53,548 nt of DNA from a virus (taxonomy: Duplodnaviria > Caudoviricetes). The translations under genes and the position numbers were made by a program. Below are positions 6,052 through 26,919 of this stretch, in pieces; positions within the stretch are counted from its first letter, which is position 1; every line of letters begins with the position of its first letter. The notes beneath the pieces are model-generated. The model did no database searches. It had not been told where the DNA came from and saw nothing but the letters and a program-made list of their open reading frames with translations. The stretch lies in the IMG/VR virus record IMGVR_UViG_3300048586_000904, positions 1 through 53,548 of that record. The stretch is one strand, 5' to 3'.

Positions 6052-6876
6052 TTAGACCTCCACGACTTGGCTAAGGCTTGCTGTCGGTGCGTCGGGAACC
6101 TGGATGCGAATCGTCACCATTCCGTCGGTAGGTCTTCGCACTTGCAAGTCGTATTGCTGATCGCGAAGCAAGAGGAGCGAAACCAATCCATCCAAGTCCG
6201 TCGCCCCGATGGTGAGCGTATTGATGTTGAGCGTTTCGGCGACGATGGCGTAGCCTTTAGGAAATCTTGCATGCACAGGAATCTGCGCGAGAGAATTCCC
6301 GAATTGATCCGCCACATGAATGGTGACGACACAGGTCTCCGGTGTAGGGAGGAGTGCTGATGGAACCTGTGTTAACTCGATTTCCTGCTCGAGGTCTTCA
6401 TTGGTCACAGAGATGTTGATCTCGGGAATATCTTCATAGCCCGTGGGTGGGATGAAGCGGGCGGTGTAGAGATTGGGAGTGAGCCAGACTCGAGCAATCC
6501 CGGTTGTGTCACTGAACAGGGTTCGTCCTGCGATACGCACGGCGACGCCCGAGACCGGAACATCGTTCGCGACAAACTGAAATTCAATCTTGCGAATATC
6601 GGGTCCCGATGTGAGCGAGGAATCGTTGCCAATCTCAAAGCTAAATCGCGGATACAATCGACCGAAAAACTCCACCTCGCTGTCGAGCAATACATCGCAG
6701 CGATACTCGTCTTCGAGCAATGCTTCCTCGATGGTGGCTTCAAATCGTCCCGATGCAACGGGGGATTCGGTGAATGGATTTCCGCCGACGTTGACCAGTA
6801 GTCCGGCCAGCGTCCAGATTTGGAGAGTAAGATTTTCACCTGAGTAATCAGGTCGATGAAGAGTGATCTTGATCAT
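6052..6876 (-). CDS. Acidic beta-sandwich (Ig/carboxypeptidase-regulatory-like) virion-associated protein
   Basis: Two segments of the pattern PVSGVAVRI...SDTTGIA and SLAQIPVHA...TDLDGLV; ATGA overlap with the collagen gene. Confidence 0.55.
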
Positions 6877-9800
6877 CCTGCTGGCCCCGCTCTTCCTGTT
6901 TCAATCAAACGGTTACCGTTGGAAATAAAGGTGAGCGTGAAGGTCTTTCCAGCCACCGCCCCAGTATTCACAACCCCTGCAACGAAAAATTGGGAGGGAT
7001 TGAAGCTAACGGTCCGAGAGTTTGTGCCCTGAGATTCAATAATCAGGAAGCAAATCGTCCCGGCTGCCGGTACCGATGACGTCAAAGTCAAGGGTGCAGA
7101 TACGGGAAGCTGCACAACGGTAAAGGAAGCGAAGGGCATGGAGGTGCTGTTCGCGGTAAGTAAGCTGTAGCTGCCAGCAATGTGACCGGTGGTCTTTATT
7201 CCGGTGCTGTCGATTTTGAATCGTTCTGTGCCTTGGGTGAAGAATTGATGAAGTCCATTGACTCCCTGGGCGTCATAATAGGTTTGGCCCAGCATCAAAC
7301 CGTCACAAGATAGAACTAAACTGGTCGTGCCGCCTTTCATAAGGACGATGGCAGGGCGCGAGGCAGTGCTGGGTACGGTTTGATCGATGACCAATGTTGC
7401 GTTGTCTGAACTGTTGTTGTCCAATCTTGCAGCCGCAGCAGCGTTGGAACTCCGAACATGAAACCTCGCTAACGGCACTTCGGCGCCAACAGCGACGTTC
7501 CCGTTACCCGTGACTCGGAGTCTCTCGACGAAAATTCCATCACCAACGGCGTCGTTCAAGAGGATTGTGTTTCCTGCCCACGTTTGGATTCGAAATCCCT
7601 TGTTGGAATCGTCAGAGTCGCGAAGCGTAATGAAGGGCTGGAATCCCGTAACTCGCAGCCCGTCCTGACCGACCACATCGACCCGTGAGATCGGAATGGT
7701 CATGTTCACGCCAAAGTTGCCATCAGCCGTCATGACGAATTTGTCGGAATACGTTCCAGCGCCGGTGGTGTCCATGCTGTACGCTAGCGAGCTTCCGACC
7801 GCCTTCATCCGCACACCGGCCAAAAAAGCACTGTTATCGCGAAACGTCATGTACGGTTCAACACCGGTGATCCGCATACCATCCTGCCCCACGATATCCA
7901 ATTTGGATATGGGAGCGCTGGTGTTGATACCAACGCAGATGGTTATTGGATTGAAGACGAATCCGCTTGTTCCGCCAAAGTCCCCATCGTCGTTGAATTG
8001 AATATGAGTATTCGATCCACCCGGAGTACCACCGCCGACTCCGGGATCGCCTTGGTCACCTTTATCACCCTTGGGGCCAGGCGTCCCTTGGCGACCAATC
8101 GTGCCGACAATGAGGCTACCTAGCGAAGCCGCGATCACATCCGTCGAATTGACAGACGTTACACGCAAAGAAAGCACATCGTCTGGTGCAAGTTCGACGA
8201 GTGCCTCGGTTGATAGCTCGACAAGGTTCACAGCCGATGTTGTCGGTGATTCCTTCTCGGATGCGTTGATCGGGTTGCTGTTCTTATAGAAGATCACCCG
8301 AAGGATTCTGTTGGTGCCTTGCGTCAATACGATCGACGCATGCGCCTGCACTAGCAACGTATCGGTGCTCGTGTTCTTGACGGAAAGTCCCGACGTGCCT
8401 GCCGAGAAACCATTGGCTCCCGTTAAAAGATTGGGGGTACCTGATAGCGCGACATAATCACCGAAGCTAGGTGGAGCTCCTGCGCCGCTGGAGAGAGTCA
8501 CTTGGCCGAAGTAAGCGATGCCATCGCCATCAGCTCCGGCTGGTCCGGGGATACCTTGTGGACCTTGCGGTCCTTGAATGCCCTGGATGCCTTGCGGGCC
8601 TGTATCGCCGGTATCTCCCTTGGGACCGATTGGCCCTGGTTCGCCCTGGGGGCCTTGTGGACCGGTCGCGCCCGCAGGGCCAGCGGGGCCTGTTTCTCCC
8701 TGGATACCCTGAATGCCTTGCGGACCTGTTGCACCGGTCGGACCAGCAGGACCAATTTCGCCTTGGATGCCCTGCAATCCTTGTGGTCCCTGAGGACCAG
8801 TTGCTCCGGTCGGCCCTGTTGGGCCAGGCTCGCCTTGGATCCCTTGAAGGCCTTGCGGTCCGGTTTCACCTTGCGGGCCGGCTTCGCCTTGAGGTCCAAT
8901 CTCTCCCTGCAAACCTGGTTCACCCTGTGCTCCCGCGGGACCGATTGGTCCGGGATCTCCCTGGGGACCGATAGGACCAATAGGGCCCATGGGACCAATG
9001 TCACCGGTATCCCCTTTATCCCCTTTTGGACCTGGTGCTCCGGGCTCGCCTTGTTCACCCTGCGGACCGGCAGGCCCGGTCTCGCCTTGGATCCCCTGTG
9101 GGCCTGGTTCTCCTTGAGGGCCAACCTCTCCCTGCACACCTGGTTCGCCTTGAGGGCCGATGGGGCCAATAGGTCCTATGGGACCAATGTCACCTGCATC
9201 GCCTTTATCACCTTTGGGACCTGTCGGTCCGGGCTCGCCTTGGATGCCTTGAGGTCCTGGTTCTCCGGTATCTCCTTTATCTCCCTTCGGACCAGGTTCT
9301 CCTTGGATGCCTTGAGGACCAGGTTCTCCCTGACTACCCGTTGCACCGGTGTCCCCTTGGTCTCCTTTCGGTCCAGGCGGACCTTGGATGCCCTGTTCAC
9401 CTTGAACGCCCTGAATACCCTGTGGACCAATATCCCCGGTGTCACCTTTGTCCCCTTTGGGACCACGAATGGGACCGACGTTGTCCCACGTGGCTCCATT
9501 GAAGACGTAGCCATCGCCATCGGCTACGACGACATACAAATCCCCCGTGATTGGGTTAACGATGTCGCTCAAATCGGCAACTGTTGCAACGCTACCTTTG
9601 AGCGTCACGCTGGTACCGGGATCGCCCTTTGGACCTTGCTCACCGGTCGCACCGGGAATGCCTTGTGGCCCCTGAGGACCAATGGGACCGATCACTCCGG
9701 GATCACCTTTATCACCCTTGGGTCCAGGTTCGCCTTGGATTCCTTGTGGACCTGCTGGCCCTGCTTCACCCTGTATGCCTGGTTCACCGGGTGAGCCCGG

Positions 9801-10157
9801 CTCACCTTGAGGTCCCTGCGGCCCAACATCGCCTGCGTCACCTTTGGGGCCGACTGGTCCAGGCTCTCCTTGAATCCCCTGAACACCCTGTGGACCGGGT
9901 TCGCCCTGTGGGCCTGGTGGTCCTTCAACGGATAACTCCCATTCACGATCTTCGCTCAGATCAAAAGCGACGCCGTTGATGCTGAGCTCGCGAGACTTCG
10001 GAACATAGTTCTCCAAATCCGGAGGTAGAGGATTGATCTCCGCAGCGCTGAGTTGACCGTTTGGATCAATCCACAGGGGCATCGGTTCGTTCGGAAACTC
10101 CGCGAGTCCCCGCATCGCCTTGCCACCTCGAATTTTTTGCGCGTTGGTCGAGCTCAT
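6873..10157 (-). CDS. Collagen triple-helix repeat fibre protein
   Basis: Two long G-X-Y blocks ([14 protein letters not shown]...) and a short third block, a globular spacer, and three VG(I/V)N/G..P.S(K/R)L(D/H)V-type fibre repeats near the C-terminus. Confidence 0.9.
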
Positions 10158-15024: not shown

Positions 15025-17154
15025 TTACGCTTCGCCCTTCGCCTTGACACCGCCGCGTGGATCTTGAAGGGCTACCCCGAAGTCGTGGTAGCCACGCATT
15101 TGGACACCAAGCACATTGAAGTCCGCTTCGGCCGTTTCAATCGTGGGAGACTCTTGCCCGTTGAGGAATGCGACCTCAATAACCGGAAGGTCATTGGGGT
15201 CTGCGAGCAGGTACCATGCTTTGCCTGAAGATCCTGCGTAGGTGGTGTTCCCCAAGTAGCGGCTCACTTCGACGCGGAACTTCCCTTGGTGCGGGTTGCT
15301 CGTGGTGGTCTTCGTATTGGCTGTGGTATCACGCATCTCCAGAGATTTGTAGAGTTGTGCGGCCGTGGTCGAGATAGCGGTCGGAACCAAAAGAAGCTGT
15401 GGCATCACGCCGACGGGCTTCCCGTCCGCATCGACTTGATCCATGAAGGTTTTCTCCCCTTCCGTGAGGCCATCGATCCCGAGAGCGGTGGTTGCGCCGG
15501 CGATGTAATTCTTGTTGCCGGTGGTGAAGAAAGCCGCGTTGTTCAAGAATGTGGACCAGAAGATGTCATTGATCTTGAGCCCCGAACCACGGCCAAGCTT
15601 GCGAGGAACAGTGGTGATAGCACCCAGGTCATCATTGATGATGTCTCGACGATCGATCGAAAGCTTCAAACCATAGGTATCCGCTTTGTTGCTGTAGGTT
15701 TCTTCCCCAAGCGTTCCGCTGGAGATCTCTCCACCGGGAGCGACTAGTTCATATTGGTCTTTCCCGATGAGCCGGTAGCTGCTGATGGTTTTGAAATCCG
15801 AAACCGATCGGACTGCGCAAATGCTCCGCCAGACTCGTTCCACCGAGAAGAAGCCCTCCAAGAGAAACTTATTAGCTACGTTGGAGAGGATCCCCGAGAC
15901 TTGGATAGTGGAGAGTCCCGCTTGGATCGAAGGTCCAAACGCAAACCTCAGCACTTCACGTGAATCTCGGAAGTTCCGCCCGGTGTAACCATTAGCCCAT
16001 GCGGCCTCGAGAAGAAGCTCTTGCAAGCTAATACCACCACGGAAGCGACGGGTTGCGGCCTCGAGAGTCCGAGCTTCGTAGAGGCTCTCCAAATCGGAGT
16101 GTCGAGCAGCAATCATGCATGCTGCTTCGAGCACCTCTCCCGTTAGTGAACGATCGACAGTTTGAATCGCGGGGGCTTGTGGACGTTGTGCGCGGAGCAT
16201 TTCCAATTCCGTTCGAGTAGTATCCCATCCTTCGGCGATGGCGCGGGCTTCGATCGTCGCGTCACGGCCGTTGCAGATTTTGCGAATGGCAGCAATTCGT
16301 TTGAGTTCGCTCGACATGGAGGAACGCAAAGCCGTCACAGGATCATTGCCTGCGTCGCTCCCCGTCGACGAAGATGGCTCATTTGCAGATGGCAACTCGT
16401 GGATGGGATCCGAATCGAGACGAATCTGAGCAACAGCAAACATCTGACGCAGCGAATCCATCTGAGACGCGGTTAGAGAATCTTTCTCGAAACCATGGAT
16501 TGCGAGCCAAGCATCGAAAGAGGTCGGCACCGATGGTTCGGTGGTTGCTCCCTCCAGTGACTGCGTTCCCGTTGGCTGTTGGCTAGCTGCGATCTGTGCG
16601 CTGGTGTTATCATCTGCGCCAAGAACCACAAAGCTCACTTCACCGAGAAAGGATCGGCGCGCCACATTCACGGGGCCAAGAACTTCCTGTCCATTGACGA
16701 TGGTCGACTTGCCCTCCGCTACAAACTCCACTTGATCGGCACGTGCACCGATGGAAGCTTGCCAGGCGAAGCCCTTATCGTTGAGAGCAATGACTTGACG
16801 TGCCTTGGGGGAATCCCCCATCACTTGCCCGGCTACGATGAGCTGATTGTTGAGAACGGCGATCGAATCGGTTTGACCGACTACAAAATCCACATCGCGT
16901 GTGTGATCCAAGAGGATCGGTCGGCGCTGTTTCCCCATCTGCATACCTTGCAGGTCCACTACGACGGGGTATCGCCAACCGGCAAGCTGCATCGGTCCAC
17001 CGGTATAAGCGGTCATGGTGAATCGACGAAGACTCGATTCGGTTGCTTCCCCGGCCCCTCCTTCGAATTCGACAGAACTGGCTTGCAGTTGCAAGAGTTG
17101 GTCGGTCGAGTGCGCGAGGATATTCAACGGTGCTGGGGATGGACTATTCATCAT
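15025..17154 (-). CDS. Prohead protease-scaffold-major capsid fusion (Mu gpT-like capsid domain)
   Basis: N-terminal PILLDH...WQASIG...EVSFVVLGAD protease motifs; C-terminal LSNVANKFLL...DFK...IINDDLGA...DFGV capsid motifs. Start moved to ATG 17154, which overlaps the portal end. Confidence 0.88.
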   Translation of the reverse strand: MMNSPSPAPLNILAHSTDQLLQLQASSVEFEGGAGEATESSLRRFTMTAYTGGPMQLAGWRYPVVVDLQGMQMGKQRRPILLDHTRDVDFVVGQTDSIAVLNNQLIVAGQVMGDSPKARQVIALNDKGFAWQASIGARADQVEFVAEGKSTIVNGQEVLGPVNVARRSFLGEVSFVVLGADDNTSAQIAASQQPTGTQSLEGATTEPSVPTSFDAWLAIHGFEKDSLTASQMDSLRQMFAVAQIRLDSDPIHELPSANEPSSSTGSDAGNDPVTALRSSMSSELKRIAAIRKICNGRDATIEARAIAEGWDTTRTELEMLRAQRPQAPAIQTVDRSLTGEVLEAACMIAARHSDLESLYEARTLEAATRRFRGGISLQELLLEAAWANGYTGRNFRDSREVLRFAFGPSIQAGLSTIQVSGILSNVANKFLLEGFFSVERVWRSICAVRSVSDFKTISSYRLIGKDQYELVAPGGEISSGTLGEETYSNKADTYGLKLSIDRRDIINDDLGAITTVPRKLGRGSGLKINDIFWSTFLNNAAFFTTGNKNYIAGATTALGIDGLTEGEKTFMDQVDADGKPVGVMPQLLLVPTAISTTAAQLYKSLEMRDTTANTKTTTSNPHQGKFRVEVSRYLGNTTYAGSSGKAWYLLADPNDLPVIEVAFLNGQESPTIETAEADFNVLGVQMRGYHDFGVALQDPRGGVKAKGEA

Positions 17155-18637
17155 TTGAAGCTGGATCACTGATAGACTCCTCGTCGAGTTCAGGTGGTGA
17201 AACAGAAGCAGGTACGCCAGGCTGCGAAAGACCGAGCTCATTCATCAAGGCCAGTTCTTTGGCTCTTTGATAGAGTGCGTCTTCCCAATCGCGACCTTGT
17301 CGTGCGTATTCGTAAGCGAGCGTGGTGGTATGGTTGGAGAGCCGAGTCGCCTGCGCGTTGGCTTCCTTGAGTGGATCCACATGCTCGTGGCCATCGAAGA
17401 ACCATTGGTGGGCAGCGGTGAATGAGAGAGTGCGAACAGATTGAGGCAGCAATCCCTCGATGAGAATGGCTTCGCTGAGCCATGCTGCAAGAATGCGATC
17501 GAGGATGACTCGGGCTAGGTTCGCTTGATCGACACGGATCGATTTGAAGTAGGTTTGGTGATCTAGCCGACCAGAGGCATAGTTGTATCCAGCGGAATTG
17601 CCACTCGCAACATTGAACGGCATGTTCAGGCAACGCGCGATCTCATTGAGAATCTCGTGTTTGAACTCTCCATAGGTACTGCATGGCTGTTGGGCTTCGA
17701 GCTGCGACATGCGCCAGCCACCGGGCATAGTGAGAAGCGCTCGTTTCTCGAGTTCAATCGGCTCAAAAGGTTCCGCCGCGTCCGCTTCACCGTTGGCAGG
17801 TGAATCGGTGTAGAGGATCCCTGCGAAGTCGGCAGCGGTTTCGGCTGCAGCGATGACAGCTAGAGTGAAACGACGAAGCTGCGCGAAGAGCGGTAGGGCT
17901 GGGGTGATTTCCGGAATGCCGCGCACCTGGCCAGGTCGATCCACGCGAAAAAGATGGAGCATCGCGCCTGCGGAGACAGTGTTGTATTCACCCCAGGCGT
18001 TCAATGCATCACCCGGATGCGTCTTGAGAACATGGTAGAAGATTGGGTTTCCAAACGAATCAAATTGAATTCCATCGATGTAGTTCGGCGAGGTTACAAA
18101 ACCCATCGGAGCAGCGACTTGATCGGCTTCTACGAGCATCAAGTCAAGTTGCACGGGAGCAGCTACACGAGGGTTGCTGGTGAGAATGCCGAAGGCTTCC
18201 CCGTCCCCCATACTTGCAAGCTTCATCGTTCGTAGCTTCTCAGGGAGACCGATCGCATTGGACCAACGATGGAACTCCGTTTCGATCGCTCGATTAACGG
18301 CTGGATCTTCGGCTAGCATTTGAAGCCGAGGTCCTGTTCCAATAACATCGTTTGCAAGTGTCAGCGTGATGCCGCGGGCATAACTGTTGTTGGCAATCTC
18401 ATAGCGAGCGCGGTTGCGAAGAGTACGGCGTACGCTGGCGCTATTCGCGCTCTTAGCCGAGAGACCATCGGCAGCAGACCAATGGCGACGATTATCATCG
18501 CTGGTGATCGATGCGTCGTAGCGAGCATCAATTCGGGGAGGCCAAAAGAAAGGCTGTCGGAATCCGCGTCCACCGCTAGAGGGACGCGAGGTCCGACGCG
18601 GTCGATTGCTCAAGATCCCTGACAAGAATTCGAACAT
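17144..18637 (-). CDS. Portal protein, lambda family
   Basis: LRNRARYEIANNSYARG, RPGQVRGIP, NYASGRLD and VDPLKEANA motifs. Likely ATG at 18637 after an AGGAAG SD. Confidence 0.93.
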   Translation of the reverse strand: MFEFLSGILSNRPRRTSRPSSGGRGFRQPFFWPPRIDARYDASITSDDNRRHWSAADGLSAKSANSASVRRTLRNRARYEIANNSYARGITLTLANDVIGTGPRLQMLAEDPAVNRAIETEFHRWSNAIGLPEKLRTMKLASMGDGEAFGILTSNPRVAAPVQLDLMLVEADQVAAPMGFVTSPNYIDGIQFDSFGNPIFYHVLKTHPGDALNAWGEYNTVSAGAMLHLFRVDRPGQVRGIPEITPALPLFAQLRRFTLAVIAAAETAADFAGILYTDSPANGEADAAEPFEPIELEKRALLTMPGGWRMSQLEAQQPCSTYGEFKHEILNEIARCLNMPFNVASGNSAGYNYASGRLDHQTYFKSIRVDQANLARVILDRILAAWLSEAILIEGLLPQSVRTLSFTAAHQWFFDGHEHVDPLKEANAQATRLSNHTTTLAYEYARQGRDWEDALYQRAKELALMNELGLSQPGVPASVSPPELDEESISDPASNDE

Positions 18638-18716
18638 CCGTATTCTTCCTTGATTGTCGTGATTCCGACAGCCCGATTTGAAAAGAAGCGAGTAAGACCG
18701 AGAAGAGAGAGACGGT

Positions 18717-18914
18717 TCAGTCGGCCCCGGGGGGAACAACGCGGTTGAACCGAAGCCCACGGTTCTTGGTATGCATCGCAGCCTTGGATGCGAGGTACCT
18801 GTCGGCTTCGATTTGATCGGCGAGCTTATGTTGCTCAACACTTCCCGCGTCCCCCGAGGCCTTGGCTGGGGCCTTCGCGTTCTCGCGAATCGTCTCTTGC
18901 AAGTTGTCTGACAT
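18717..18914 (-). CDS. Head completion protein (lambda gpW-like)
   Basis: 65-aa ORF between the terminase and the lambda-type portal. Confidence 0.7.
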   Translation of the reverse strand: MSDNLQETIRENAKAPAKASGDAGSVEQHKLADQIEADRYLASKAAMHTKNRGLRFNRVVPPGAD

Positions 18915-18950
18915 ATGTCCGGTCCTAGTCGTTGATGAAGAGTTAGGTCT

Positions 18951-18990
18951 TCTATCTGTAGGAATACCCGGTACACATCGAGATTGACGG
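18951..18990 (-). promoter_or_regulatory. Candidate phage-sigma late promoter, copy A (CCGTCAA-N9-GTACCGGGTATTCCTACAGATAGA)
   Basis: Matches 34700-34739 at 31/40 nt with identical spacing; lies upstream of the head/tail operon. Confidence 0.7.
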
Positions 18991-19025
18991 ACAATAGGGA
19001 AGTATTTTTATACAACCATCAATTA

Positions 19026-21296
19026 CTATTCAGTCCGACGCCGCTTTTGCATTGCAGAAAAGCTCATCCGTTCTTTACGAATCACGGCTTTACCATCGAC
19101 GTCAGGTAGGACCACACCTTGCATGGATGCCGCGACTGCAGTGCCAACCAGGCAATCGAACCAGTGGTTGTCGGGCTGCTCGGGTCGCTGCTTCCATTCG
19201 TTAACAATACGGCCACGAGCTTCGGTCTTAATAAAATACTCTGATGTCAATTGTTCCGAAAACATACGATGTGTTTCAACACTTGTTCCAAAGAGTGAAA
19301 GGCATCCACGATCCCCCATCGAAACGCGAAGCCGAGCATGAGTAAACGACTTCCACCAGTTGGTGTCGTAAATCACGTGTCGGATCGCTCGTTTGCCCTG
19401 AACGTTGGGGATGCGCCAGTTAAGACCAACCCTGTCGCCGGGGCGGCGTCGATACTCGCTGAACGGTTGACTTGAAGCTCCCACGAATCTCCCGTGGCTT
19501 GGCATGATCACAGCGGCATGTTTGGATTGCCTGCAGAACTGATAGACGACGTCCGTTGATTGGCCCCAGTTGGCGTCGATCAAACAGCGACCGATTCGCA
19601 TGGCAGCCCCATCGTCTCGTTGCCACTCTCGATCGAGTAGCTTGGATGTCAGCGATTCAAGGCCGGCGTAAATCGAACCTTCGAGCCCGGTTCCCATAGC
19701 CTCGGAGCCCAGCGTCTGCCGAGCTTCCCGTAATGTGAAGTACGGTCGCTGCTGATCAGGATAACAACCATAGTCGATGACGTATCCTGTGAAATCATCT
19801 TCCCATGCAGCGACCACATAGAAGAGTAGGCTTTGCTGGACGTCGATAAATGCGGAGAGGTTGTTTGCTCCGATGGAAACCAAGCCACGATCCAAGCGAT
19901 TGATCTTGCTTGCAACCTCTGCAGGTTTGAGCATCCCATCGCTAACCGTCTCGGTTGGCAGCGGTTGGTTCTGGTATTCTGCGAAGAACGCAGCTTCATC
20001 CTGAAGCTTGAGGTTCATAGCATGCTGGATTGCCGAAAGTTCATCGTAGTTAAATCGTTCCTGCCAAGCGACAACAGCGCCGTCATCCATAGCGGCTTGG
20101 TTCTGACGATAGAATTCGGTGGCTGCTTCACCACCATCACCACCTCGCATCCCTTCCGCGCGGATCTCGGCATAGCGTTCCCAAAGCATTTCGTTCTTTG
20201 GGAAGGAGTAAACCATCTTGGTTCGTTCCCCATTCCATTCGGGATGTCGATTGCGATCGAGGATATTGTCGGCCATGTCACCAGGGCGAATCACCGTGCA
20301 GGGCATGATGCCCGAGATCTTCTTCCCCGGACCAGCCAAACCGAGCACGGCACCGGCAAGGATGCTTTCCCGATTTGCGCATTGCGAAAGCGAACGCGCG
20401 CTCTCATCGGTTTGCGGATCATCGAGCACCACGAGGCTTGGACGGACCGTTCGACCGTCGGGGCGCTTGAACTTCATACCACGGATACGGCCAGTTAGGC
20501 CAGCGACCTTGATAATCGCACCGCTGGCACTGCTACCTTCGATGGTTGGCAGCACAACCTCTTTCGCTGTCCATCCGATCTGCGTGCGTTTGCCTTTGTA
20601 TAGCTGACCATTGGCGCGATTCGAAATTCCATCGAGTGCTTGGATCGGAAAGCAAACCTCGGGAAAGTCGGCTAAGAGCAATTCGTTACTATCGAGTTCG
20701 GTTTTGATCGAATCGAGCATGTCACAGGCGTGGCCTTCGTCGCTACCGATCAGACAGACGAAGTTCCGATGTCCGTAGAGCACCGCCCAGATACAAGCGA
20801 CTTCGGCTATCGACGATTTTCCACTGCCGCGTGCCATCGCTAAGGCAAACAATCCCCCATGCACAACGGCTTGTTCAATTTTGTTGATGACCTTGACATG
20901 GTCTGGAGACCACGCGAGGTGAAAGGTGAGTGGAAAGTACGTCTCGCAAAAGTACCTGAAGTCTCGCGATGCGCGATCTTTGCGATCGGGATTATCTACG
21001 CTGGGGAGTTCTCCGATGTCGCGTCCGGCAAGTGCGAGCGCTGCATTGCGTGCCCGAGCTCGCTCCTTCATCGCTTCGTACGAATCCACCCCTGAGTTTT
21101 GTTTGGGCGTATGGCGTACGGCATGCATCCAGGCGCAATAGCGAAGGAGATCGACCGTCTTGTTGTCACCGATACGGGCGCCGGCGCGTTGCCGATGACG
21201 ATACAACTGCCGCTCGCTGATCACCTCGCCTAGCGGCGTTGAGTTGAGCAGCCGGCATAGCTCACTTGGCTTTAGTTTTCGAGGATCACTCGCCAC
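19026..21296 (-). CDS. terL: Terminase large subunit (gpA-like nuclease domain) with an N-terminal HTH-like extension
   Basis: Walker A MARGSGKS, Walker B LVVLDD, AFIDVQ and DNHWFDC nuclease motifs. Confidence 0.9.
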   Translation of the reverse strand: MASDPRKLKPSELCRLLNSTPLGEVISERQLYRHRQRAGARIGDNKTVDLLRYCAWMHAVRHTPKQNSGVDSYEAMKERARARNAALALAGRDIGELPSVDNPDRKDRASRDFRYFCETYFPLTFHLAWSPDHVKVINKIEQAVVHGGLFALAMARGSGKSSIAEVACIWAVLYGHRNFVCLIGSDEGHACDMLDSIKTELDSNELLLADFPEVCFPIQALDGISNRANGQLYKGKRTQIGWTAKEVVLPTIEGSSASGAIIKVAGLTGRIRGMKFKRPDGRTVRPSLVVLDDPQTDESARSLSQCANRESILAGAVLGLAGPGKKISGIMPCTVIRPGDMADNILDRNRHPEWNGERTKMVYSFPKNEMLWERYAEIRAEGMRGGDGGEAATEFYRQNQAAMDDGAVVAWQERFNYDELSAIQHAMNLKLQDEAAFFAEYQNQPLPTETVSDGMLKPAEVASKINRLDRGLVSIGANNLSAFIDVQQSLLFYVVAAWEDDFTGYVIDYGCYPDQQRPYFTLREARQTLGSEAMGTGLEGSIYAGLESLTSKLLDREWQRDDGAAMRIGRCLIDANWGQSTDVVYQFCRQSKHAAVIMPSHGRFVGASSQPFSEYRRRPGDRVGLNWRIPNVQGKRAIRHVIYDTNWWKSFTHARLRVSMGDRGCLSLFGTSVETHRMFSEQLTSEYFIKTEARGRIVNEWKQRPEQPDNHWFDCLVGTAVAASMQGVVLPDVDGKAVIRKERMSFSAMQKRRRTE

Positions 21297-21492
21297 GGCC
21301 CATCTCCTTTGCTTGCCAAGCGCTATAGTTCACGAGGTTGATCGTGCCATCGGCGTTCGCGGGCGCACCTTCATGGAGATCACTTCGGATCTTCTCGGCA
21401 TCGATCCGTTCTCGGTAGGCAGCGGACAGAAGTTTCGCGGCTTGTTCGATCGAGAGTCTCGTCGGATCGACCGGCTGTTTGTCTTCACTCAT
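21286..21492 (-). CDS. Putative terminase small subunit / HTH DNA-binding protein
   Basis: 68 aa, SD GGAGGA, overlaps the terL start, and resembles the terL N-terminus. Confidence 0.65.
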   Translation of the reverse strand: MSEDKQPVDPTRLSIEQAAKLLSAAYRERIDAEKIRSDLHEGAPANADGTINLVNYSAWQAKEMGRGE

Positions 21493-21673
21493 CGCATTCC
21501 TCCGTGACTTGGTAGTTCAAAACGTGGGGCCACTGTTTGCGCCGTGTCGCGTTTCCCCATCCACTTCGCCTGGTTATGCGAAGCATGTTTGAACGCGACG
21601 GTGGCGTAATGTTGGGGCACCGGTGGCTTCTCGAAGAACATGCGAAATTGCTGGAAAAACATGATGCAATTCG

Positions 21674-21716
21674 CTGGATGATTCCTCTCCCGCAAGGCTT
21701 CATGTGTGTTGTCGCG
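21674..21716 (+). promoter_or_regulatory. Cassette promoter-like motif, copy 1
   Basis: CTGG-N14-GCAAGGCTTCATGTGTGT...CGCG upstream of the amidoligase gene. Confidence 0.55.
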
Positions 21717-21767
21717 ACGCGAAGAACGCGACGAAACACAAACCTTGCACCCCAGAGGAACATCACC

Positions 21768-22625
21768 ATGAATGCAAACGAAATTTTCTTTGGTCTGGAA
21801 TTTGAGACGACGCTTCCGAACAGTGACACCACACCAATCGGCCCCTACCACAACGGATACCAAGTCCCTTGGTTGCCAACCGGATGGAAAGCGGAACGCG
21901 ACGGTAGCATCCGCCCTGAGAGCCCATGCCGTAAAGGATGCGAGTTCGTAAGCCCCAAGCTCAAAGGTTACGGAGGCCTCAATGAAATCGAAGAAGCAAT
22001 CGACAAGATCAACGAGCACGGAGGAAAGGTAAATCAAAGCTGCGGCCTGCACATTTCGATCGAGTGGAATGGCGACGCAGCCGCCCTCGCACGGTTGATC
22101 TCCTTGGTTGGTAACCACGAGAAAGCGATTTTCGCTAGTACCGGAACACGCCGCCGCGAACAAACGATCTACACCAAGCAAATCAAGCAATACGGCGACA
22201 AAGACGCCGCGAAGAATCGATGTGAAGCGGATCGCTACCACCTGCTGAACCTTACCCACCTGGCCGCCGGTAGAAACCGAATCGAATTTCGGGCTTTTGC
22301 TGGAACGCTCAACAAAACCAAGGTGGCGGGATACCTGATGATGGTTTTGGGATTGGTAGAGTTGGCTTTGAGCACCAAACGCTGCAGCGATTGGGACTAC
22401 GTCAAGAAAGAGGGAGCAAAAAGCTGCTGGGACCGACCGGGCGCCGGCCTTGGGGAAACGGAACTCAACCGATTGTTCTACCGACTGGGGTGGACCAAGG
22501 GGTGGTATAAGGGCGCCCTTCGCGACAAGGTCTACGGAGAGATCGCAGGCGAGTCGAAACCAGATTGGAGAACCATAAAGGCAAAGCTCCTCGATCTTTC
22601 TAGGAAATACGACCGAGTCGCGTAG
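21768..22625 (+). CDS. Amidoligase family protein (Amidoligase_2-like COOH-NH2 ligase)
   Basis: GLEFET, ERDGSI, CEFVSPKL, SCGLHI, RYHLLNL and IEFR motifs; ATG at 21768 after AGAGGA. Confidence 0.85.
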   Translation: MNANEIFFGLEFETTLPNSDTTPIGPYHNGYQVPWLPTGWKAERDGSIRPESPCRKGCEFVSPKLKGYGGLNEIEEAIDKINEHGGKVNQSCGLHISIEWNGDAAALARLISLVGNHEKAIFASTGTRRREQTIYTKQIKQYGDKDAAKNRCEADRYHLLNLTHLAAGRNRIEFRAFAGTLNKTKVAGYLMMVLGLVELALSTKRCSDWDYVKKEGAKSCWDRPGAGLGETELNRLFYRLGWTKGWYKGALRDKVYGEIAGESKPDWRTIKAKLLDLSRKYDRVA

Positions 22626-22832
22626 ATCAAACACGACCGAAACCGAAGTCAACAAAGTTTTGGTTTCTCTTGATCCAAAACCTTGAGGCGAAAGCACGTC
22701 ACTTTCTTGGCGATTGGTGTATGTAACTAATGACGGCCTAAACCAAATCGCAACATCATGCGTCACGTTTTGCCGGAACGGACGCGACTCAGCGAAACAT
22801 TCAGTTTCTTCTTGGAATCCTCGCATGTTCGG

Positions 22833-22874
22833 CTTGAGGTTATGCAAACCGCATGGCTCCATGGTGTCATCGCG
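22833..22874 (+). promoter_or_regulatory. Cassette promoter-like motif, copy 2
   Basis: CTTG-N14-GCATGGCTCCATGGTGT...CGCG. Confidence 0.55.
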
Positions 22875-22913
22875 TAAACGATTCGAAACCGAGTTCCCAA
22901 CGAAGACACAAAC

Positions 22914-23171
22914 ATGACCAACGCAAGCAACCAACACGCAGCAACCGACGCGACCCTTCGCCAAATCTTCAAGGCGATGGACGCCCACCAAGCCCAAGAG
23001 ATCCGCGAAGCCTATTACAAGGCAATCGAGGGATTGATGACCTTGGCAGAAGCCCTCGAAGTCGCTGACGCACAACAAACCCCCAGCGCCGGCCCGCTTC
23101 TCACCGAACACTTCCACGCCGTCCAAGCGTTGGACGCCATGAAGAACAGCCGCCTCGGCAAGATCCTCTAA
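22914..23171 (+). CDS. Small helical hypothetical protein
   Basis: 85 aa with natural composition, downstream of promoter motif 2. Confidence 0.75.
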   Translation: MTNASNQHAATDATLRQIFKAMDAHQAQEIREAYYKAIEGLMTLAEALEVADAQQTPSAGPLLTEHFHAVQALDAMKNSRLGKIL

Positions 23172-23201
23172 ACCCCAGAACATAACGAAGGAGAAATCAA
23201 C

Positions 23202-23459
23202 ATGAAGCTCGACACCTTGATCGAAATCTTGAACGACTACCGCGAAGAGTTCGGAGGCGACGCGGAAGTGCGATTGATGACCCAACAAAACTGGCCCTTT
23301 GAGAACCGTATTTGCGGCGTAACGAGCGGGCGCGACATGAACGAAACGGATGAGGACGATGACCAAGATGTCGCCGACGACCAAACGGTTTACATCGTCG
23401 AAGGGGGACAAATCTGCTACGGCAGCAAGAGGGCTTGGGAAAACTACAAGGATAGCTGA
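23202..23459 (+). CDS. Small acidic hypothetical protein
   Basis: 85 aa, SD AAGGAG, EVRLMTQQNWPFE and YIVEGGQICYG segments. Confidence 0.8.
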   Translation: MKLDTLIEILNDYREEFGGDAEVRLMTQQNWPFENRICGVTSGRDMNETDEDDDQDVADDQTVYIVEGGQICYGSKRAWENYKDS

Positions 23460-23465
23460 ACGCAC

Positions 23466-23705
23466 ATGTACATCGGGCAACTTCATTTGGTAACCGACCT
23501 CGAAGACGGAGATCGTGCCTATCCAGAGGCGAACGTCTCGTACGAAATCGAATCGATTGACGACTCTTCGCTCAATACGACCGTCGCGTATGTCGAGCGA
23601 CGAGGGAATCGGCTGATTGCAAGAGGATGCAACGGACGGGATTACGCCGTCTCGGGCTTCGATGGTTACGAACTTTACGCGGTTCGAAAGCCGCCACAGC
23701 GATGA
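23466..23705 (+). CDS. Small hypothetical protein
   Basis: 79 aa, 6 nt after the previous gene and followed by a terminator. Confidence 0.65.
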   Translation: MYIGQLHLVTDLEDGDRAYPEANVSYEIESIDDSSLNTTVAYVERRGNRLIARGCNGRDYAVSGFDGYELYAVRKPPQR

Positions 23706-23724
23706 TGATTGCCCGCTTCGCGAC

Positions 23725-23761
23725 AACGCCCCACGTTTGCGACGTGAGGGCGTTCTTTTTT
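23725..23761 (+). terminator. Intrinsic terminator
   Basis: AACGCCCCACGT-TTGCG-ACGTGAGGGCGTT hairpin followed by CTTTTTT. Confidence 0.75.
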
Positions 23762-23873
23762 CGATTGGCGTCATTTCCCCCAGATGCAATGCGACGCGAC
23801 TGTGGCCAAACGGTTGCGATTGTGGGGCTCGGAAACATTCTTCAAAAAAGCATCGAACTACTTTTTGAATTGC

Positions 23874-23915
23874 CTTGCTGTTTATCAACGTGCATGGCTC
23901 ATGTGTGTATACGCG
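23874..23915 (+). promoter_or_regulatory. Cassette promoter-like motif, copy 3
   Basis: CTTG-N14-GCATGGCTCATGTGTGT...CGCG. Confidence 0.55.
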
Positions 23916-23951
23916 AAAGCGAATTGATAACCCAAACGAAGAGATGCATAG

Positions 23952-24266
23952 ATGACTCACCACGACCTCGACCTGACGCTTACCAAGATCAGCCACCGAA
24001 CCCCTGGGGCTGGAGGTTCTTGGGTCCAAGGGAAGATCAACAACGAATACCGATTCGATGCCCTGGTCTTCTCGGAGCACGCGGAATGCGAATCGTACGA
24101 ATTGGGAAGAAGCAAGATTTCGAAGCTTTGGATCCAACGCCTTTCCGATCGCGCGGTGATGTTCAACTTCGACCGCGGGTTGGATGTCGCGGCGGTCAAC
24201 ACCGAGGTTCAGGTGGTGGTTGATTTTCTTTGCGAAGGACTCTCCGACTTGGTCTTTGGTCAATAA
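23952..24266 (+). CDS. DUF7678-like phage protein
   Basis: WVQGKI...SKISKLWI...FNFDRGLDV pattern. Confidence 0.7.
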   Translation: MTHHDLDLTLTKISHRTPGAGGSWVQGKINNEYRFDALVFSEHAECESYELGRSKISKLWIQRLSDRAVMFNFDRGLDVAAVNTEVQVVVDFLCEGLSDLVFGQ

Positions 24267-24335
24267 GCCGAAACGCGGAGAGGATCCGCGTCGCCGATCG
24301 GTGGTTCGATCGGCCTGACGATGGCAGCCAACCAC
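24267..24335 (+). ncRNA. Type II hammerhead ribozyme
   Basis: GCC-GAAA-CGCGGA(gagga)TCCGCG-TC-GCCGATCG(gtggtt)CGATCGGC-CTGACGA-T-GGC. All core nucleotides and three stems are present, and loop GTGGTT is complementary to AACCAC at 24330-24335. Confidence 0.9.
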
Positions 24336-24359
24336 GAACATGAACACAAGGTGATCAAG

Positions 24360-24944
24360 ATGAAGAAGGCAGACGTAAAGATCGGCGGTAAGTATTTCGC
24401 GAATGTTTCCGGCAACCGATGTGAGATCCGAATCGATGCGGAGAAACCGCGTGGCGGATGGGATGCTACGAATCTGGCCACAGGCAAGAAGATTCTTATC
24501 AAAAGCGCACAGCGTCTTCAGGGGGAGGTGACGACGCGAGCCGGCCAAGCCAAGGTGACCACCGAGGGAAATGTCACCGTGGTCGAGAATGAGCCGGCAA
24601 CTGTCGAATCGTTCGGGGAGACTGCGACCAAGGTGGCCGTTCTGAAGAAGCCTCGTAAAGCCAAACCAGCTGCAACCGAATCGGCGGCGGCCGAATCGAA
24701 GACGAGTGGCAAAAAGCGAATGAGCTGCATCGAAGCGGCATTGAAGGTCCTCTCCGAATCGGCTGAACCCATGAACACGCAACAGATGATTGCCGCTATG
24801 GAAGCGAAGGGGTACTGGACGAGCCCGGGAGGAAAAACTCCTCACGCGACCCTCTACAGCGTGATCCTTCGCGACTTGGCTAAAGGCGATTCGAGCCGGT
24901 TTGTAAAAGCCGAACGCGGACGCTTTACGGTTTCCAACAAATAA
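24360..24944 (+). CDS. Protein with a C-terminal winged HTH (HARE-HTH-like)
   Basis: AALKVL...PMNTQQMI...GKTPHATLYS...RFVKAERGRF; likely start at ATG 24360. Confidence 0.8.
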   Translation: MKKADVKIGGKYFANVSGNRCEIRIDAEKPRGGWDATNLATGKKILIKSAQRLQGEVTTRAGQAKVTTEGNVTVVENEPATVESFGETATKVAVLKKPRKAKPAATESAAAESKTSGKKRMSCIEAALKVLSESAEPMNTQQMIAAMEAKGYWTSPGGKTPHATLYSVILRDLAKGDSSRFVKAERGRFTVSNK

Positions 24945-24962
24945 GCCGAAGGCGATGCAATC

Positions 24963-25181
24963 ATGCGAATTCGATTGAAGAGAGGCGACCGCATACGGTT
25001 GGTCTCGATGCCTGATGATCCCGATCCAATCCCGGTCGGGATGCTTGGAACCGTCACCGAGGTTCATGAGCATCGAGACTGGATGCAGGTCGAGGTCGAT
25101 TGGGACAACGGCCGCTCCCTGATGTTGACCCTTCCCGATGACTGCATTGAGATCATCGATTCCCAGAACTCCGAATTCTGA
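24963..25181 (+). CDS. DUF4314 family protein
   Basis: GDRIRLVSMPDDPDPIPVGMLGTV...VDWDNGRSLML pattern. Confidence 0.85.
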   Translation: MRIRLKRGDRIRLVSMPDDPDPIPVGMLGTVTEVHEHRDWMQVEVDWDNGRSLMLTLPDDCIEIIDSQNSEF

Positions 25182-25193
25182 AGGGACCACACC

Positions 25194-25511
25194 ATATCGA
25201 CGCGAGCAACGATTGCCCATTCCGATAGCGATGGGAGTTACCACGCTACGTACCTGCATTTCGATGGATACCAAGACCACGCCGGCAGAGTCCTCTAAGA
25301 ACATTACACATCTATCGAGTCGGCATGAACGTTGGTCGTAGGCGGCGACATTCGTCCGGTCGCTAACGATGGAATGCCCGAACGATTCACCGACCGCAAC
25401 CGCGCGGTTGTCATGCCTACTCGCGCAGCCTTGCATGAATTCGCTAGGAACTGCGGAGCGGAATACATCTATGTCTTCGAGGACGAGTCTTGGCATTGTC
25501 ATAAGCGGTGA
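25194..25511 (+). pseudogene. Decayed phage hypothetical gene (xSTRATI...YLHFDGY...EYIYVF family)
   Basis: ATA in place of the start codon, in-frame TAA at 25296 and TGA at 25326, natural stop at 25509-25511, no frameshift. Confidence 0.7.
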
Positions 25512-25521
25512 TCGCGACCTC

Positions 25522-26919
25522 CTATCGCATGTTTTCCTCGCGCACTTTCATTGCGATTGGTGATTCGCCGGTTCGCTCAAGGATTGCTGGCTTGCCTGTA
25601 AACCTTTGGTACCTATCAACAATTACGTCAGCGTAAAGGCAATCGAGTTCCATCAAGAAGGCGTTCCGACCGCATTGCTCGGCGCCGATCAAGGTCGAGC
25701 CACTTCCACCAAACAAATCGAGAACATTCTCGCCAGGCACGGAAGAGTACTGCATCGCTCGCACCGCGAGCTCCACTGGCTTTTCGGTGAGGTGGATCAT
25801 CGATTGCGGATTGACCTTCTTCACTTGCCACAGATCGGTTGCATTGTTAGGTCCGTAGTACTTGTGGCCCGCCCCTTCCTTCCAACCGTAGAACGCCCAC
25901 TCATGCGCGCCCATAAAATCCTTCCGAGTCAAAACGGGGTGCTGCTTGTCCCAAATGATCGATTGGGAGAAATACAAACCATGCTTGGCAAGGAATGGTG
26001 GATAGTTACCACAGTTGGCGTAGCCTCCCCAAATGTAGAAGCAACGACCGGGCAAAAGTACGCGTGCGATGTTCCCAAACCACGCATCGAGCAATCGATC
26101 GAACTCGTTGTCGCTGACAAAGTCATTCGCGAGGGGACGATCCTTGGGCCGAAGCTTCTTATGCGTTGCAGCGTGCTTCGGTTTCCCCGTCTCATGATCG
26201 ACGCCAAAGGAAGCAGCGTTCCCTTGTCCTTGCTTGAGTTTTCCTGACGCGGCGTCGTTGGTAAACGAAGACAAACCGGCCGCGATCGCGTTGTTCGATC
26301 GAGGTTCCACCTTCACATTGTAGGGTGGGTCTGTGTTGCAAAGATGAATTGCATTGCCGGCCAACAAGCGATCCAGATCAGCAGGACTCGAGGAATCGCC
26401 ACAGAGCAATCGATGATTTCCGAGGATCCAAAGATCCCCTGGCTTAGTGATCGCAGCATCTGGAGGTTCCGGGATTTTATCGGGATCGGTCAAGCCTTCG
26501 TTGACTCCGGTATCCATCAGCTTCGCAAGTTCCTCCGCGTTGAACCCAAGCAACCCGAGGTCGTAGTTCGCTTCCTGTAATGCCGACAATTCGATCGGCA
26601 ACAGATCATAATTCCAGTCCGCGATCTCAGCGGTCTTGTTATCTGCGATGCGATACGCTCGAACTTGCTCTGGCGACAGGTGCGCCGCTACAACAACGGG
26701 GACCCGATCCAGCCCGAGCTTCTGCGCGGCTTTCAATCGCGTATGGCCAACGATGATGACGCTGTCGCTATCAACCACCAATGGCTGCGCGAAGCCGAAT
26801 TCCTTGATCGATGCTGCGACTGCGTCAACGGCTTTATCGTTGTTGCGCGGGTTGTTTTCGTAGGGACGAACTCGATCGAGGGTCCACATTTCAATCTGCA
26901 AAGCATTGATGGTTGACAT
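25522..26919 (-). CDS. ParB-N-terminal + N6/N4 DNA methyltransferase fusion
   Basis: ParB motifs PYENNPR, GHTR and YRIADNK; MTase motifs TDPPYN, HLTEKPV and DLFGGSGST. Confidence 0.92.
   Translation of the reverse strand: MSTINALQIEMWTLDRVRPYENNPRNNDKAVDAVAASIKEFGFAQPLVVDSDSVIIVGHTRLKAAQKLGLDRVPVVVAAHLSPEQVRAYRIADNKTAEIADWNYDLLPIELSALQEANYDLGLLGFNAEELAKLMDTGVNEGLTDPDKIPEPPDAAITKPGDLWILGNHRLLCGDSSSPADLDRLLAGNAIHLCNTDPPYNVKVEPRSNNAIAAGLSSFTNDAASGKLKQGQGNAASFGVDHETGKPKHAATHKKLRPKDRPLANDFVSDNEFDRLLDAWFGNIARVLLPGRCFYIWGGYANCGNYPPFLAKHGLYFSQSIIWDKQHPVLTRKDFMGAHEWAFYGWKEGAGHKYYGPNNATDLWQVKKVNPQSMIHLTEKPVELAVRAMQYSSVPGENVLDLFGGSGSTLIGAEQCGRNAFLMELDCLYADVIVDRYQRFTGKPAILERTGESPIAMKVREENMR

Follow-up and report, generated by a model that had tools for sequence, protein, structure and literature searches.

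A kilobase-long open antisense frame opposite head-on cargo genes in prophages of Planctomycete bacteria

The closest precedent for the locus described here is the reverse open reading frame (ORF) of ambigrammatic narnaviruses, which is described opposite the RNA-dependent RNA polymerase (RdRp) gene, along with the 'Robin' segment (10.1101/761890, PMC8316113, PMC8155312). In the portions of these reports drawn on here, the reverse peptide appears not to be a functional protein, and the role proposed for the reverse ORF (rORF) is ribosome association (PMC8155312). A related layout is found in the IMG/VR provirus record IMGVR_UViG_3300048586_000904, whose 53,548 bases are the whole stretch of DNA analysed and are called the window below. 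The element is a double-stranded DNA (dsDNA) prophage of Planctomycete bacteria, and its minus strand carries a stop-free ORF of 1337 codons (21489..25502, minus strand) opposite seven intact plus-strand genes, one plus-strand pseudogene and a type II hammerhead ribozyme, in a single codon register. In our view the block is fairly probably an "ambigrammatic" cargo cassette, whose minus strand is kept free of stops to let translation of the operon transcript continue.

The likeness to narnaviruses, as they are presented in those sources, is close: in both cases the complementary strand holds a stop-free frame with aligned codons, the leucine and serine codons whose reverse complements are stops are excluded, polymorphism argues against a conserved reverse peptide, and ribosome association is proposed. 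The differences lie in the setting. Narnaviruses are described there as single-gene RNA replicons of about 3 kb in eukaryotes, whereas the present element is no RNA replicon with an RdRp, as members of Narnaviridae are, but a provirus of dsDNA that sits in Planctomycetota chromosomes and encodes a terminase, a portal protein and a methylase. Moreover, the frame here crosses 4-16 genes with their spacers, a ribozyme and a pseudogene, so that a register lock is needed, and the block is slotted into an opposite-strand operon with coupling-type junctions at both ends.

Three further groups of described systems come close in one respect each. Long ORFs antisense to annotated genes are known in bacteria, such as pop opposite ompA (603 bp; PMC7103648) and two genes of Pseudomonas aeruginosa (957 and 1536 nucleotides (nt); PMC8850804); according to the parts of these studies considered, they are translated and under purifying selection with one gene opposite each, whereas the frames here extend over 4-7 kb, many genes and spacers, with no purifying selection on the peptide. 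GC-rich shadow ORFs, or pseudo-ambigrams, likewise have a stop-poor in-register antisense frame in the account excerpted here (PMC13262655), but the present locus differs from them in composition, length and codon use, as set out below. Anti-Rho devices, among them N and Q of lambda, Psu of P4 and the RfaH/ops system (PMC12360218, as excerpted), share with this locus the presumed problem, a long untranslated operon RNA antisense to foreign genes, and the proposed outcome, expression of late genes; they differ in that our proposal contains no antiterminator protein or RNA element, the stretch being simply translatable, and in that the link to Rho consists in its presence in the hosts.

A literature search at the level of titles and abstracts found no phage description of such a cassette. 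Phage morons are generally described as self-contained, each having its own promoter and terminator. Like morons and other accessory cassettes, the present block is oppositely oriented, stands beside the packaging genes and varies in content between relatives; unlike them, its cargo obeys a register-and-codon rule set by the opposite strand.

Codon register and junctions of the open frame

The long ORF runs on the minus strand from an ATG at 25502-25500 to a TGA at 21491-21489 and is free of stops throughout, as an earlier note on this DNA had claimed. It spans nearly the whole forward coding region, as an ambigrammatic reverse ORF does, with its 1337 codons crossing eight plus-strand ORFs. 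These all start at positions divisible by three and are separated by spacers of 288, 30, 6, 246, 93, 18 and 12 nt, exactly as that note had listed them. In plus frame 0 of 21489-25502 the codons TTA, CTA and TCA, whose reverse complements are stops, occur 0, 0 and 1 times, and the lone TCA is the ORF's own stop; the assertion that the three are absent in frame from the cassette thus stands but for this one. The other two plus frames of the same interval contain 6, 11 and 34 of them (51 together) and 9, 17 and 13 (39 together). The codons of the two strands are therefore aligned and the forward frame lacks UUA, CUA and UCA, as in an ambigram. Elsewhere in the window the three codons are in ordinary use, at 1.68% in the minus-strand genes and with 15, 5 and 13 occurrences in the three other plus-strand genes.

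The earlier note had proposed a synonymous-codon null as a check, and it bears the observation out. The seven intact plus-strand genes were resampled with synonymous codons from the window's minus-strand genes and the spacers were shuffled, in 5000 trials. The resampled cassettes contained 31.3 ± 5.3 antisense stops with a minimum of 14, which puts the Poisson probability of none at about 2.6e-14, and their longest open run averaged 204 codons and reached at most 523, against the 1337 observed. Thus, the frame is open far beyond chance. It is not a GC-driven shadow ORF either, because the null maximum is 523 codons, G+C is 53-56%, and the other A-ending codons (NNA) are used normally in the cargo; both chance and a GC-driven shadow ORF are ruled out on this ground. 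The second-longest shadow ORF of the window, named as such in the earlier note as well, has 430 codons (8502-9794, plus strand) and is within the range expected of shadow ORFs. It lies opposite a 1094-aa minus-strand gene (6873-10157) in the most GC-rich part of the window (about 60%).

The openness extends to parts of the block that are not translated on the plus strand. The spacers of the window have no antisense stop in 243 codons, where about 10 are expected, and those of a related locus, L031, have none in 453 codons, where 16.5 are expected. The antisense frame also passes uninterrupted across the type II hammerhead ribozyme (Hammerhead_II, RF02276; 24266..24333, plus strand), which a covariance model places in the spacer before the HARE-HTH gene. 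In addition, the last of the eight plus-strand ORFs (25194..25511, plus strand) is dead. Comparison with intact relatives shows it to be a pseudogene of a 105-aa cargo family: it has ATA in place of the relatives' ATG start, and nonsense codons TAA at 25296 and TGA at 25326 where the relatives read AAA and CGA. It has thus been disabled by three point changes, with no frameshift and no antisense stop. The earlier count of eight plus-strand genes accordingly becomes seven intact genes and this pseudogene. The 105-aa family is intact in relatives L002, L025 and L052. In contigs from public runs of relatives, A stands instead of T at 25296.

These untranslated parts bear directly on whether the open frame could be a mere by-product, of cargo descended from one polyprotein, of plus-strand avoidance of the three codons (through tRNA supply or anticodon nucleases), or of composition. 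In-frame splitting of a giant gene would indeed give a shared frame, a related locus (L001) has an apparent in-frame fusion of two cargo genes, and pseudo-ambigrammatic sequence arising from extreme G+C bias at third codon positions (GC3) is in print, in the part of the source used here (PMC13262655). But spacers, ribozyme antisense and the dead gene lack antisense stops too, though no plus-strand ribosome reads them, and the spacer counts bring the idea close to refutation. The depletion is also confined to the in-register frame, the composition and the normal use of other A-ending codons speak against it, and the same cargo families sit in mixed frames in sister lineages, with TTA, CTA and TCA present. 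Because of this last point the stop-free property is one of how the genes are arranged, not of the genes as such, and we regard a by-product as very improbable.

At its two ends the long ORF is packed against its minus-strand neighbours like a member of the operon. Upstream lies a gene for a protein with the Pfam domains ParB_N and N6_N4 DNA methylase (25522..26919, minus strand), and the ATG of the long ORF comes 19 nt past its stop. A Shine-Dalgarno-like AGGAGGT (25517..25523, minus strand) overlaps that stop (TAG, 25524-25522) and leaves 14 nt to the ATG. Downstream, the final TGA overlaps the ATG of a 68-aa ORF (21286..21492, minus strand) as ATGA, with GGAGG upstream. Both junctions are as first reported, but the identification of the 68-aa ORF as a small terminase is not upheld, since it has no family match that would identify one. 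The methylase gene and the last plus-strand gene converge with a gap of 10 nt, which leaves no room for a terminator. At the other end, a divergent spacer of 275 nt (21493..21767) separates the start of the 68-aa ORF from the start of the amidoligase gene, and the last ~92 codons of the long ORF cross it. The AGGAGGT and methylase-stop context is kept in many relatives.

The selected strand and the relatives

Relatives were collected in two ways, by an amidoligase search that gave 80 loci on viral contigs (67-91% identity) and by an amidoligase alignment that gave 80 loci in genomes. All 80 genome loci belong to Planctomycetota, mostly to Pirellulaceae (Pirellula, Stieleria, Novipirellula, Aporhodopirellula, Rubripirellula and others). 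Within the amidoligase gene itself, 75 of the 80 viral-contig loci and 70 of the 80 genome loci have no in-register antisense stop. A locus is called locked here if its in-register frame stays open for 900 codons or more and plus frame-0 ORFs cover over 60% of that interval. Open intervals of at least 900 codons are present in 97 of the 160 loci (52/80 on viral contigs and 45/80 in genomes), and many of the loci below the threshold are contigs cut short; intervals of at least 600 codons are present in 73/80 and 70/80, respectively. The longest exceeds 2377 codons on viral contigs and reaches 2018 codons in genomes.

A more detailed analysis covered 53 sources. Their 520 plus-strand ORFs make up 56 families, and the sources show 42 gene orders between them. 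Each cassette has 4-16 of these ORFs in one shared register, and cargo genes have been inserted, lost, duplicated and permuted between relatives. The share of the interval that lies in plus frame-0 ORFs is 61-89% (median about 0.8), and the same measure on two true minus-strand genes of the window gives 21-41%. The number of antisense stops expected per locus is 5-37 in the genes (for the 50 of 53 sources with flanking reference ORFs) and 1.5-19.5 in the spacers. The cargo genes of the open intervals have no TTA or CTA among 3661 leucine codons and no TCA among 1973 serine codons, which is true by construction; the flanking minus-strand genes use TTA or CTA for 594 of 5074 leucine codons and TCA for 381 of 3587 serine codons. 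Where the loci are listed, the first ATG of the long ORF commonly lies 5-26 nt past the stop of the upstream minus-strand ORF or overlaps it, and the long ORF ends, where listed, in an ATGA-type overlap with a small ORF ahead of terL or 61-154 nt ahead of it. Thus, openness is conserved across many cargo arrangements. The comparison with related prophages that the earlier note had called for therefore turns out as it foresaw, with different cargo, one register, an uninterrupted frame of 900 to more than 2377 codons and an unconserved peptide.

That the peptide is unconserved follows from the pattern of change on the two strands. Between the window and L001, the genes carry 62, 39 and 163 substitutions at plus-strand codon positions 1, 2 and 3 (of 1007 each), whereas the spacers carry 42, 36 and 34 (of ~320 each). 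Among the 12 largest plus-strand families, variability peaks at the third plus-strand position in all but one, a family of ~50 codons that is possibly non-coding. Since the third plus-strand position is the first position of the minus-strand codon, the first position of the minus frame evolves fastest. Across 17 homologous sets of spacers, diversity by frame position is nearly even (0.247/0.251/0.226). Of 176 gap runs in spacers, 98 have a length divisible by three; the others have to offset each other, since the frame is preserved. In one spacer, between the window and L001, indels of +4, +3 and -13 sum to -6.

Synonymous diversity was also compared between the cargo genes and terL at fully conserved amino-acid columns. 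Diversity in the cargo is near that of terL; for the majority of amino acids in the comparison it is somewhat lower (Ala, for instance, 0.499 vs 0.608), but not for Lys. Exchanging the Gln codons CAA and CAG changes no amino acid on either strand, yet this pair is not favoured: its diversity is 0.296, where Glu has 0.339 and Lys 0.340. Each of the 43 conserved Leu columns is variable, the codons present being CTC, CTG, CTT and TTG and never TTA or CTA; in terL, 79 of 660 Leu codons are TTA or CTA. Judged from these patterns, the plus-strand proteins are under purifying selection and the minus-strand polypeptide is not, the absence of stops being the sole conservation on the minus strand. As with an ambigrammatic reverse ORF, then, both polymorphism and the double-synonym comparison speak for a reverse peptide that is not purified, and the antisense product has none of the selection, homology or domains that would mark a protein-coding antisense overlapping gene.

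The 1337-codon ORF matches no Pfam family and no PHROGs family, and its translation appears by eye to contain much Arg, Ser, Leu, Val, Cys and His. That it is simply a large phage protein of the usual kind is ruled out by the missing Pfam and PHROGs matches and the reversed codon-position pattern. A more permissive version makes the ORF a true antisense overlapping gene whose product, a working protein of 1000-2400 aa, tolerates almost any sequence, as a disordered filler, scaffold or decoy might. The ATG, the Shine-Dalgarno-like motif and the tight operon packing all suit such a gene, as do the listing of nine such ORFs by public gene callers and the slightly lower synonymous diversity of the cargo relative to terL (Lys apart). 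It is hard to reconcile, however, with a minus first codon position that evolves fastest, with spacers that lack coding periodicity and in one case carry compensated frameshifts, with a double-synonym site that is not favoured, with "domains" that are shuffled, gained and lost along with the plus-strand genes, and with a length that varies more than two-fold among products that match nothing in Pfam or PHROGs. We therefore hold a working protein to be quite unlikely.

The nine antisense frames listed in protein sets of JGI, NCBI and ENA (P0002-P0010) are 1306-2308 aa long and are entered as hypothetical proteins without domains. These entries are probably annotation errors, behind which the true cargo genes of the other strand go unseen. 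The converse, that the plus-strand ORFs are shadows of the minus-strand ORF, is ruled out, as four of them have Pfam domains and 11 of the 12 largest families are most variable at the third position. Recoding of stop codons on the plus strand is ruled out as well, because all three stop codons break plus frame 0.

Translation as the proposed object of selection

In-frame stops are read only by ribosomes, and the spacers, the ribozyme antisense and the dead gene are constrained even though they are untranslated on the plus strand; both facts argue for selection on uninterrupted translation of the minus strand. The decay of the dead gene by point changes that left the antisense frame open counts for the same reading. 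The proposed course of events is as follows. Plus-strand accessory genes sit head-on in a minus-strand operon, between the ParB-methylase gene and the small ORF, terL and portal genes, and selection would keep the whole block readable by a minus-strand ribosome by holding it to one register and excluding TTA, CTA and TCA. Ribosomes would start just past the methylase stop, read through the cargo on its antisense side and terminate where the following minus-strand gene begins, or close to it, so that the operon transcript would never be bare over these 4-7 kb. The likeliest benefit would be protection from Rho-dependent termination (polarity) and decay, with expression of the packaging and head genes, and the open frame would be an alternative to protein antiterminators.

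What is known of Rho makes such a benefit plausible. According to the part of the source drawn on here, Rho suppresses antisense transcription inside coding regions in every organism examined so far, rut sites within genes are masked by coupled translation, loss of this coupling is polar on the genes downstream, and phages counter Rho with N, Q or Psu (PMC12360218). An antisense stretch of 4-7 kb ahead of packaging and head genes would be exposed to this polarity. All five Pirellulaceae host genomes searched encode Rho, with TIGR00767 above its curated cut-off. Each of them (G001-G005) has two Rho-like genes, one at ~600 bits, above the TIGR00767 cut-off, and one at ~445 bits, below it. A Rho-polarity purpose of the open frame is, as we infer it, a well-motivated hypothesis. 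In its fullest form the proposal makes translation itself the antiterminator: head-on cargo would have to keep one register without TTA, CTA and TCA, the ribosome would escort RNA polymerase through kilobases of antisense, and the cargo would consist of interchangeable pre-adapted modules with giant polypeptides as a by-product. We put the chances of this fuller form at somewhat under even.

Several observations weigh against a translated, protective frame. The 14-nt Shine-Dalgarno spacing in the window is long. Among relatives, the first ATG of L003 is 236 nt from the upstream gene, that of L008 and L009 is at codon 307, though a GTG or TTG stands at codon 5, and in some locked loci the long ORF stops 61-154 nt short of the next gene. 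A promoter next to the small ORF is possible; a consensus scan found none, and Planctomycete promoters may not fit the consensus. That scan gave no promoter-like site against 2.1 expected from shuffles, and a terminator scan gave 7 terminator-like sites against 6.5, so that the promoter and terminator motifs reported earlier do not rise above chance. There is also no clear rut-like enrichment of C over G: a C/G ratio above 1.5 is reached by 9.9% of 78-nt windows in the cassette and by 7.4-8.8% of those on the rest of the strand. The RNA record of the cassette consists of unstranded metatranscriptome contigs that are possibly DNA. They come from three metatranscriptome runs (Logan contigs) as short pieces, some of which bridge 21492 and 25502-25522 with a single mismatch, and, being strandless and maybe DNA, they were weighed neither for nor against anything.

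The distribution of the long frame among relatives belongs to the same side of the balance. A tree of amidoligases was built with FastTree only from 150 of 161 rows, the 11 omitted having matches shorter than 266 residues. Among these 150 near full-length relatives, the frame through the amidoligase reaches 900 codons or more in 94, runs into a contig end in 21, and in 35 is bounded, in register, and shorter than 900 codons. The locked state changes at least 15 times on this tree, which rules out a single origin, and identical amidoligases are found in both the locked and the unlocked state. In most of 20 loci without a long frame the cargo families are those of locked loci, in a largely similar order, but their frames are mixed and each gene has 0-4 antisense stops; terL is intact in the unlocked loci looked at. 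Because unlocked loci exist and their terL is intact, these phages apparently manage without a single bridge.

The frame lock is thus lineage-specific and not obligatory. In 15 hand-picked loci without a single long frame, the fraction of the cassette taken up by minus-strand stretches open for 100 codons or more is 0.86-1.00, against 0.49-0.91 for the antisense of structural genes, with the cassette the higher in 15 of 15. At a G+C of 56-59% this is no more than suggestive of a relay of shorter overlapping antisense ORFs. On selection, then, the earlier proposal is supported in its open frame, its irrelevant peptide and its confinement of cargo to the stop-poor register, but the rule is not universal, as the 35 of 150 relatives with shorter frames make plain.

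A neighbouring explanation keeps translation as the object of selection and the peptide irrelevant but places the benefit elsewhere: ribosomes would shield the minus-strand RNA from RNases, or from double-stranded pairing with plus-strand transcripts that RNase III would attack. All the evidence for openness without peptide conservation applies equally here, the layout itself entails convergent, head-on transcription, the missing rut-like enrichment suits shielding slightly better than Rho, and the idea of protection by polysomes is stated for narnavirus rORFs in the part of the source drawn on here (PMC8155312). Shielding is indistinguishable here from an anti-polarity benefit, as bacterial mRNA decay and Rho both respond to lost translation, and we judge it unlikely to be the main benefit. 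A related version, in which a coupled ribosome helps RNA polymerase through head-on traffic from a plus-strand promoter, is a further possible variant.

Cargo, prophage context and wider meaning

The plus-strand cargo begins with an Amidoligase_2 gene (PF12224; phrog_2443; 21768..22625, plus strand; Pfam E 2.9e-15), whose relatives are 67-95% identical. Three genes without a family match follow on the same strand, of 85 aa (22914..23171; its plus-strand ORF family shows third-position variability), 85 aa (23202..23459) and 79 aa (23466..23705). Next come, again on the plus strand, a DUF7678 gene (23952..24266; Pfam E 8.6e-15), a HARE-HTH domain protein (24360..24944; Pfam E 1.4e-11), for which a longer ORF begins at 24321, and a DUF4314 gene (24963..25181; Pfam E 2.1e-12), after which the cassette closes with the pseudogene. 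A Pfam scan of ten further cargo families from relatives gave DUF4314 again and one sub-threshold match, and nothing else.

The hammerhead between the DUF7678 and HARE-HTH genes scores 50.8 bits against a gathering score of 37 and matches the full model (positions 1-66 of 66). It is found on the plus strand in 10 of 12 relatives scanned, among them L001 (8493-8560), L056 (7672-7735), L069 (8873-8943) and others. By this match the cargo transcript is probably self-cleaved at the hammerhead.

Two further features of the cargo are seen in relatives. In L001, a 183-aa ORF (9190-9741, plus strand) with DUF4314 at its start is apparently an in-frame fusion of two neighbouring cargo genes; such fusions come easily because all genes share one frame. 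Family F10 consists of plus-strand ORFs of ~50 codons in up to three repeats per cassette (for example L035, 10496-10651, plus strand) and lacks coding periodicity (0.298/0.320/0.345). On that pattern the family is possibly a non-coding repeat and not a gene.

Around the cassette, the minus strand holds nearly all long ORFs in the part of the window from ~34 kb down to base 1. Beyond the 68-aa ORF lie the large terminase gene terL, of the GpA type with a GpA nuclease domain (19026..21296, minus strand), and a lambda-family portal gene (17144..19015, minus strand), both identified by Pfam. No near-identical cultured phage was found, and matches in the phage collection at the protein level are distant, with identity below 31%. 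Several Pirellulaceae genomes hold more than one related prophage, some merely 50-110 kb apart: L081, L082 and L158 lie on one chromosome (the amidoligases of L081 and L082 are 95% and 91% identical to that of the window), as do L135, L139, L142 and L152 on another, and L001 and L043 are two copies in one 107-kb record.

If the favoured reading of a cassette kept open for translation is true, a reading frame is conserved over kilobases purely for the act of being translated, and this open frame limits which register, spacer lengths and codons are available to as many as 16 unrelated genes opposite. Phages would then have a protein-free way to carry cargo head-on in an operon without losing expression downstream. 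For annotation, gene callers that prefer the long antisense ORF risk hiding the real cargo genes opposite, as the hypothetical proteins of 1300-2300 aa already public illustrate. More broadly, the ambigram principle, known only from small eukaryotic RNA replicons, would also work in bacterial dsDNA elements, and the reason for ambigrams, which is open for narnaviruses, would become testable by bacterial genetics. If translation does act as the antiterminator here, bacterial mobile elements in general may have an overlooked device of this kind, an antisense frame free of stops opposite inserts that lie head-on.

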